IMG/VR virus record: IMGVR_UViG_2728369593_000014
Location: 1-5,481 of that record
Direction: 5' to 3' (one strand)
Source of the DNA: a virus
Taxonomy: Duplodnaviria > Heunggongvirae > Uroviricota > Caudoviricetes
Length of the DNA stretch: 5,481 nt
Part shown: positions 4,176 through 5,044 of the stretch, piece after piece
Position numbering within the stretch: the stretch's first letter is position 1
Layout: every line of letters starts with the position of its first letter
Translations under genes and position numbers: made by a program
The notes under the pieces: model-generated
What the model was told of the DNA's origin: nothing
What the model saw: only the letters and a program-made list of their open reading frames with translations
The model's database searches: none

Positions 4176-4829
4176 TTACGGGTTATTCACTTCCACTGTT
4201 ATACTTTCAATCAGCACCGGATATGTCGCACCGCTAGTGATATCGGTCACGCGCAATTTGTCTGCCGTAAACGTGCCGACCGGTGACTGTGACAGCATGA
4301 ACGGCGTCCCGTCCTTACCATCAATGACCGGCGTCACCTCAATACTGTTGTTACCGGCAAAACGGAAGCCCAGCGTATGCCATTCGTTATCAAATGCGCC
4401 GAATGACCCCAGCTTCGTGTTCTGACCAGCATTTCCCTTGTAGTACATCACATTAAGGTCTGTGGCATCGCTCTGTACGTAAAACGACGCCAGCAGGTTA
4501 TGACCGGCATTACCTTCCAGTGTGACGCCCTGAGGCAGTGAAGAAACCGGCCAGTACAGCGCCAGTGCGTACTGATTAGCTGTCAGTATGCCATCAACTT
4601 TAAAACGACAACTGATAAGCCCGCCCTTCTCCAGCAGGTCTGCGCCATTACCGGCATCATGCTGCATAAACCACGAGGAACTTCCTGTCTGTTTGGTCCA
4701 CCTCAGCGCCTTACCTCCTGCAGCACCTGCATCATCAACTACCAATGCACGCCCTCCTTCAGCTCCCCATCCCTGCGGATTCAGTAAACCACCTGACTCT
4801 GTTGCACGGTAATAAAGCAGCGTTGTCAC
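4176..4829 (-). CDS. 'Gene A': hypothetical 217-aa protein whose C-terminal domain is shared with gene B; possibly fused to the upstream DUF1737-like ORF
   Basis: ORF MTTLLYYRATESGGLLNPQGWGAEGG…YYKGNAGQNTKLGSFGAFDNEWHTLGFRFAGNNSIEVTPVIDGKDGTPFMLSQSPVGTFTADKLRVTDITSGATYPVLIESITVEVNNP; GTG start overlaps the stop of the upstream ORF (GTGA). Gly/Thr/Asn-rich composition with alternating hydrophobics suggests a beta-rich, possibly carbohydrate-binding fold (inference only). Confidence 0.65.
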   Translation of the reverse strand: MTTLLYYRATESGGLLNPQGWGAEGGRALVVDDAGAAGGKALRWTKQTGSSSWFMQHDAGNGADLLEKGGLISCRFKVDGILTANQYALALYWPVSSLPQGVTLEGNAGHNLLASFYVQSDATDLNVMYYKGNAGQNTKLGSFGAFDNEWHTLGFRFAGNNSIEVTPVIDGKDGTPFMLSQSPVGTFTADKLRVTDITSGATYPVLIESITVEVNNP

Positions 4830-5044
4830 TGATTTCCCGTCCGTTGGCCACCATCCCCCGTGCCGGGCACAACCACTGGCGTGGTCACATCCCCCTCCGC
4901 GGCAATCGCCTGCATCAGGGTATAAGGGGTTATGGCCACCGGACTACCAAACGGCTGCCAGCCCTCTTTCAGTTTGTGTGTCAGCTTTTCCGCAAGCTCT
5001 GACGGCGACGCCGCCTTGACAACATCATAGTGTTTAAATGCCAT
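4826..5044 (-). CDS. Small conserved prophage protein (72 aa), DUF1737-like by recollection
   Basis: ATG at 5044..5042 preceded by GGTGGAAAG; product MAFKHYDVVKAASPSELAEKLTHKLKEGWQPFGSPVAITPYTLMQAIAAEGDVTTPVVVPGTGDGGQRTGNQ. Domain assignment is from memory of small prophage proteins and NanS-p N-termini and needs an HMM search. Confidence 0.55.
   Translation of the reverse strand: MAFKHYDVVKAASPSELAEKLTHKLKEGWQPFGSPVAITPYTLMQAIAAEGDVTTPVVVPGTGDGGQRTGNQ

Follow-up and report, generated by a model that had tools for sequence, protein, structure and literature searches.

The stretch analysed here, called the window throughout, covers 5,481 nucleotides (nt), positions 1 to 5,481 of the IMG/VR virus record IMGVR_UViG_2728369593_000014 (Duplodnaviria; Heunggongvirae; Uroviricota; Caudoviricetes). 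On its minus strand lie two open reading frames (ORFs), an upstream one of 72 amino acids (aa) with a DUF1737 domain (ORF1) and a downstream one of 217 aa (gene A), and both descend from a single gene, nanS-p. NanS-p is a prophage sialate O-acetylesterase, known as 933Wp42/L0105 in phage 933W and as vb_24B_21/gp84 in phage phi24B. The protein is about 636-657 aa long and consists of an N-terminal DUF1737 domain, a catalytic SASA/SGNH domain and a C-terminal lectin-like jelly-roll domain, the last of which has been crystallised as residues 423-645 of vb_24B_21 (PMC10462455). In phi24B gp84, DUF1737 has been modelled as residues 2-57 and described as a capsid-decoration domain, and the protein is reported to be processed at both linkers, cleavage having been reported for linker 2 and proposed for linker 1 (bioRxiv 10.64898/2026.04.10.717836, a 2026 preprint). 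The three-domain architecture and the domain roles used below are taken from these two sources. The features of the locus are as follows.

ATG 5044 to TGA 4828-4826, minus strand: ORF1, the DUF1737 ORF of 72 aa (translation).
4847..5044, minus strand: 5' nanS-p remnant, codons 1-66, with the DUF1737 capsid-binding domain and the start of linker 1 (blastn, BLASTP, Pfam).
4855..4859, minus strand: run of five G (G5; CCCCC on the plus strand), ancestral and in frame; CCGGCACGGGGGATGGTGGC is identical in the intact gene, nt 179-198.
4846..4847, minus strand: deletion junction ...GGTGGC/CAACGG..., where BLAST blocks abut and 1069 nt of the intact alleles are absent.
4826..4846, minus strand: wrong-frame tail of ORF1, QRTGNQ, followed by TGA 4828-4826 (translation); the bases are native to the C-terminal domain.
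4832..4838, minus strand: G_GGA_AAT, an X_XXY_YYZ heptamer in the ORF1 frame one codon before the stop, judged incidental (sequence).
GTG 4829-4827 to TAA 4178-4176, minus strand: gene A, 217 aa (translation).
4176..4829, minus strand: 3' nanS-p remnant (gene A), residues 429-645, the lectin-like jelly-roll DUF6645 (BLASTP, Pfam, PDB).

A first-pass annotation, made from the sequence alone, had described this layout (the 72-aa ORF, the GTGA overlap, the upstream opening of the gene A frame and the G5 run), and our re-reading of the sequence agrees with it in every detail. The stop codon of ORF1 and the start codon of gene A share one tetranucleotide, GTGA at 4829-4826. An alternative ATG at 5059, 5' of 5044, would lengthen ORF1 to 77 aa, while the gene A frame runs without a stop for 38 codons 5' of its GTG, as far as TAG 4946-4944, and reads ...HGGWWPTDGKS. 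Residues 3-50 of ORF1 match positions 1-53 of PF08410 (DUF1737; Pfam, E=8.5e-17), and gene A matches PF20350 (DUF6645; E=4.9e-70). Gene A is also closely similar to chain A of PDB 6YP6, labelled 'NanS-p' (E=5.4e-97; query residues 1-216 on chain residues 2-218), a 218-aa structure that begins one residue ahead of the gene A GTG.

The common origin of the two ORFs emerges from comparison with complete Escherichia coli genomes. When positions 4100-5300 of the window were searched by megablast against 5426 of these genomes, seven gave full-length matches with the same two ORFs (five at 100% and two at 99.9% identity), and in many others the query split into two pieces lying about 1 kb further apart, within one gene annotated as 'SASA family carbohydrate esterase'. 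As the intact reference we used the gene of this name in E. coli O157:H7 strain PV15-279 (RefSeq; 1938 nt, 645 aa, WP_000143000.1), in which Pfam places DUF1737 at residues 3-50, SASA at 83-275 and DUF6645 at 494-611; in NanS-p of 933W the SASA/SGNH esterase domain (PF03629) spans residues 83-276. By blastn, window positions 4847-5044 correspond to nt 1-198 of the intact gene (97.5% identity) and positions 3649-4846 to nt 1268-1938 and beyond (99.75% identity), the part within the gene being 4846..4176. These two blocks, which adjoin in the window, are separated by 1069 nt in the intact gene, and exact 20-mers place the end of the left arm at gene nt 198 and the beginning of the right arm at nt 1268. 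At the protein level ORF1 is identical to NanS-p residues 1-66 at 63 of 66 positions (95%) and gene A to residues 429-645 at 214 of 217 (99%; BLASTP). The ATG of ORF1 at 5044 is the native start, which is also the one chosen in annotations by the Prokaryotic Genome Annotation Pipeline (PGAP), whereas the GTG of gene A at 4829-4827 is the internal Val429 codon of intact nanS-p. PF03629, present in the intact protein, has no match in either window ORF. The first-pass annotation had left open whether homologues are one fused ORF or two genes, and apart from carriers of this allele they are, in most of the records listed, single esterase genes; domain architectures were judged here from annotated E. 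coli genomes and not from the homologue search with the gene A protein, which returned mostly partial proteins at contig ends and no full-length esterases. Its statement that NanS-p-type proteins carry DUF1737 fused to downstream domains is borne out in that both ORFs come from one such gene, but a 356-codon esterase stretch lay between them.

The position of the deletion explains the reading frames to the base. The missing 1069 nt equal 3x356+1, that is codons 67-422 together with the first base of codon 423 (TCA, Ser), so that the two arms are joined out of frame. If the single lost T is put back at the junction in silico, translation reads ...GDGG-STDGKSV..., which is native on both sides, and the bases that now specify the ORF1 tail encode (S)TDGKSV, residues 423-429, in intact NanS-p. 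No microhomology or repeats were seen at the endpoints (...GGTGGC/TATCC... and ...CACCGT/CAACGG...), and the BLAST blocks do not overlap. The endpoints fall after residue 66 and at residue 423, both in inter-domain linkers, and the catalytic module has been removed almost exactly.

The deletion is a real allele, as opposed to a sequencing error. The 121 nt around the junction, used as the query, were 100% identical in eight of the 5426 complete genomes, whose named serotypes include O55:H7, O157:H16 and O2:H16 and whose sources include dog, chicken, food and human. The match stopped exactly at the junction base in 314 further genomes; in those listed, the gene holding the right arm is annotated as an esterase or, for a few strains of O157:H7, carries a DUF6645 label. 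Across NCBI, ENA, IMG and Logan, the exact 72-aa product of ORF1, including its QRTGNQ tail, occurs in 134 contigs and the exact 217-aa product in 133, and the sole indel among the copies in complete genomes is in an intergenic A-run at 4171. Outside this group the junction had no exact match among the GTDB species representatives, and neither arm of the 121-nt query matched any part of the phage genome collection at the level of megablast. A tblastn search of phage genomes with ORF1 did match 347 records; among the matches listed, annotated records call the gene SASA esterase, NanS, YjhS, hypothetical protein or, once, DUF1737 domain-containing protein, and none of these matches covers the QRTGNQ tail. 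The 90%-identity cluster of ORF1 also includes 108-aa members, annotated as 'hypothetical proteins' in E. coli OkiPb strains, which may be further truncated versions of the nanS-p 5' end. The pseudogene status itself is already known: RefSeq annotates both ORFs as partial pseudogenes, and in every carrier inspected PGAP describes the fragments as 'incomplete; partial in the middle of a contig', one as 'missing C-terminus' and the other as 'missing N-terminus'.

With a probability of about 0.93, we read the locus as a nanS-p pseudogene that lies within a degraded lambdoid prophage, in its late region, and was split by an out-of-frame deletion of 1069 nt, not by a homopolymer error or by the evolution of translational coupling. 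The ancestral gene encoded a single protein of about 645 aa with the DUF1737 capsid-binding domain, the SASA/SGNH esterase and the lectin-like jelly-roll DUF6645. An illegitimate deletion without microhomology at its endpoints then took out the entire catalytic domain together with the greater part of both linkers, leaving the frame off by one base. Translation from the native ATG proceeds through residues 1-66 and six wrong-frame codons to a TGA, which by chance overlaps the native GTG of Val429, and the frame of the lectin domain survives as an open frame that ORF finders start at this GTG. Because the catalytic domain is absent, esterase activity is, as far as the sequence can tell, certainly lost. 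Transcription of the late operon may still yield the 72-aa DUF1737 peptide, while the 217-aa fragment would be made poorly or not at all, and nothing positively supports expression of the second ORF.

Compared with known systems, the locus belongs to the nanS-p lineage. It shares with NanS-p the high identity at both ends of the protein and, in the carriers, a site within the late region of lambdoid prophages that is flanked by the Q/tRNA(/stx) segment on one side and the holin S gene on the other and lies upstream of DUF1378, DUF826 and holin. Unlike NanS-p, it is without codons 67-422, and where NanS-p is a single ORF of about 636-657 aa it has two ORFs (72 and 217 aa) in different frames; for want of the catalytic domain and of a single ORF it is to be filed as a nanS-p pseudogene. 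Like other nanS-p pseudogenes of E. coli it represents decay of one of several redundant prophage copies, others being a frameshifted copy in ATCC 25922 (DR76_RS19760) and IS-interrupted alleles (CTR3, PMC10462455; IS, insertion sequence), for which PGAP uses the pseudogene label 'DUF6645 domain-containing protein'. The ATCC 25922 and CTR3 alleles are full-length genes with a frameshift or an IS, whereas the window locus carries a clean internal deletion of the catalytic domain. ORF1 also resembles the single-domain DUF1737 proteins (PF08410) of phages and prophages in being short and essentially DUF1737 alone, but differs from them in that it does not form an independent member of the family, being a truncated three-domain gene with a six-residue wrong-frame tail.

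Three other explanations were weighed. The first-pass annotation had suspected a third homopolymer frameshift, with G5 being an error for a true G6 that hides a real DUF1737-linker-gene A fusion. One G added in silico to the run does yield a single ORF of 289 aa, as had been predicted, and small indels relative to the closest complete relative, strain MFDS1001074, occur elsewhere in the window, at 3032, 2945, 1974 and 1970. Yet intact nanS-p has G5 and not G6, and the linker of the proposed fusion, GTGGWWPTDGKS, is non-native, as is the GGWWP that a G6 fusion would carry. Beyond the run ORF1 keeps the native frame for three codons, D64-G65-G66 (GTGDGG being residues 61-66), and since it still reads native residues there, the frame breaks between 4847 and 4846 and not in the G5 run. 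A read error is excluded because the identical sequence is found in eight complete genomes and in about 134 contigs from several archives; positions 3911-5481 of the window are 100% identical to MFDS1001074. A masked fusion is thus scarcely credible, and the split goes back to the 1069-nt deletion. Nor is there much to commend a -1 ribosomal frameshift at G_GGA_AAU (4838-4832), which would restore the frame and give an esterase-free fusion of DUF1737 to the lectin domain. The heptamer conforms to X_XXY_YYZ in the ORF1 frame and lies inside the 18-nt stretch where a -1 slip leads into the native C-terminal frame, but it is an accident of native GGG-AAA codons, zero frame in intact genes, being read out of frame. 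The 102 nt downstream of it contain no stimulatory RNA structure, with a minimum free energy of -25.9 kcal/mol against a mean of -26.0 for shuffled sequences (z=0.03). G_GGA_AAU is not known to be one of the efficient slippery sites of E. coli, and we give such frameshifting a negligible chance.

The remaining explanation is a functional pair, in which a DUF1737 capsid-decoration protein and a lectin-like carbohydrate-binding protein are produced by termination-reinitiation at GUGA. Both remnants are complete structural domains: ORF1 comprises the DUF1737 segment modelled in the phi24B virion, the crystallised C-terminal domain begins next to the GTG, and most DUF1737 proteins in Pfam are single-domain, 2528 of about 3000 in the published count (bioRxiv 10.64898/2026.04.10.717836). 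The reported processing of NanS-p at both linkers means that separated domains occur naturally, and the deletion allele is widespread and unchanged. A Shine-Dalgarno-like pairing is present upstream of the GTG as well, the best duplex with the anti-Shine-Dalgarno sequence reaching -6.2 kcal/mol, but pairing of -6 or stronger is found for 19% of the 22-nt windows along this strand. The evolved GTGA coupling that the first-pass annotation had offered as its other account also loses its footing, in that GTGA comes from within the ancestral coding sequence, where the intact gene still has it unaltered (TCA GTG ACA, Ser428-Val429-Thr430), and was not selected for coupling. The overlap is no more than chance would give, for a TGA after A, G or T always creates ATG, GTG or TTG in the adjacent frame. 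The two-gene layout is peculiar to this one allele; it is not conserved among homologues, and among the complete genomes only the eight with the identical junction have it. The surrounding prophage is decayed. It has a second deletion remnant as neighbour, and in MFDS1001074 the lysis genes are followed, after a few short ORFs, by a truncated tail-tip gene, and the annotation of the examined stretch includes no head or tail genes. Selection on the remnants is not measurable because all copies are identical, which leaves no signal of purifying selection either way. Taken together, a functional pair seems very improbable. A related thought, for which we would also give long odds, is that the allele is alive in another sense: excision of the esterase would mimic linker processing genetically and release a free DUF1737 capsid-decoration peptide and, by GUGA reinitiation, a free lectin-like module, possibly acting in trans on capsids or glycans of co-resident Stx phages.

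Some observations weigh against simple decay of nanS-p. Both endpoints lie in linkers and two complete folding units are left, an outcome somewhat neater than expected of a random deletion, which can be fully attributed neither to chance nor to selection. Both fragments, as predicted from sequence, are folding-competent units because ORF1 holds the whole DUF1737 fold and gene A nearly equals the crystallised domain. Calling the locus non-functional is secure for the esterase activity only; for the two remnant products it is what we infer. No intact allele identical to both arms was found (97.5% for the left and 99.75% for the right arm against O157:H7), and because the arms differ in this way and no intact allele matches both, the direct ancestor can only be reconstructed, probably as a mosaic allele.

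The neighbourhood supplies the context of the nanS-p pseudogene. Further features of the window are the following.

5298-5481, running off the window end, plus strand: start of iraM (anti-adapter protein IraM; WP_000871291.1 in relatives), divergent from the nanS-p remnant (RefSeq annotation in relatives).
3334-3811, minus strand: second deletion remnant, DUF826 and a second nanS-p copy, junction at about 3649-3657 (Pfam, sequence comparison).
79-285, plus strand: IS3-family transposase, a C-terminal fragment only (…WVDWYNNRRLLERLGHIPPAEAEKAYYA…), left end of the window.

In the carriers the gene order is DNA methyltransferase, tRNA-Ile/Arg/Arg, iraM (on the opposite strand), nanS-p remnant, DUF1378, DUF826 remnant, second DUF6645 remnant, class II holin, lysozyme and Rz/Rz1, and intact nanS-p loci share the order methyltransferase, tRNAs, iraM, nanS-p, DUF1378, DUF826 and holin. 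In about 1380 complete genomes the upstream stretch (end of iraM, intergenic region and DUF1737) has a counterpart of about 91% identity that covers at least 80% of the query, and the gene there is an intact esterase in most of the listed records (e.g., 23CRST047) and a frameshifted pseudogene in some. The 5' sequence and start context of ORF1 are the same as in these iraM-adjacent alleles.

The lambdoid prophage around the locus is degraded. In the second remnant a DUF826 gene contributes its first 52 or so codons (Pfam, E=1.4e-27), which run out of frame into the last 110 or so codons of a second nanS-p copy; this latter part matches DUF6645 (E=2.9e-9) and shares 99.4% identity with the 3' end of intact O157:H7 esterase genes. 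The locus formerly carried two nanS-p copies. Eight complete genomes span this junction, the same number as for the main one, and the two remnants occur together in the inspected carriers D1, 2013C-4465 and MFDS1001074. D1 (L001:6044-7895) has, in addition, an IS66-family element (tnpA and a truncated ISCro1-family transposase) between the DUF1378 gene and the DUF826 remnant, which is absent from the window and from MFDS1001074 and points to further independent decay of the same cryptic prophage. At the other end, similarity to the MFDS1001074 prophage ceases at about position 321, adjoining the IS3-family fragment, and the prophage is probably cut short directly after Rz/Rz1, either by insertion of the IS or by a deletion that an IS mediated. 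Relative to MFDS1001074 (99.4% identity), the window carries an additional base at 1970 and another four nt away at 1974, where it reads AAATAAAATAACGGACCTGT and MFDS1001074 reads AAATAAAATA-CGG-CCTGT. These fall where the N-terminal part of the lysozyme would be expected (minus strand, ORF 1459-1875), and the lysozyme ORF is 138 aa long in the window against 177 aa annotated in MFDS1001074, which may reflect real decay or a sequence error. The other single-base indels, at 2945 and 3032, lie where the holin gene starts or upstream of it.

The split itself matters little; the apparent overlapping gene pair represents the decay of one of many redundant prophage copies of nanS-p. Its consequence lies more in how such copies are recorded, since naive gene callers present the fragments as real proteins, under the names 'DUF1737 domain-containing protein', 'hypothetical protein' or 'yjhS', in more than 130 contigs in public databases. 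Tallies of nanS-p dosage in pathogenic E. coli should leave out such copies as functional esterase genes.
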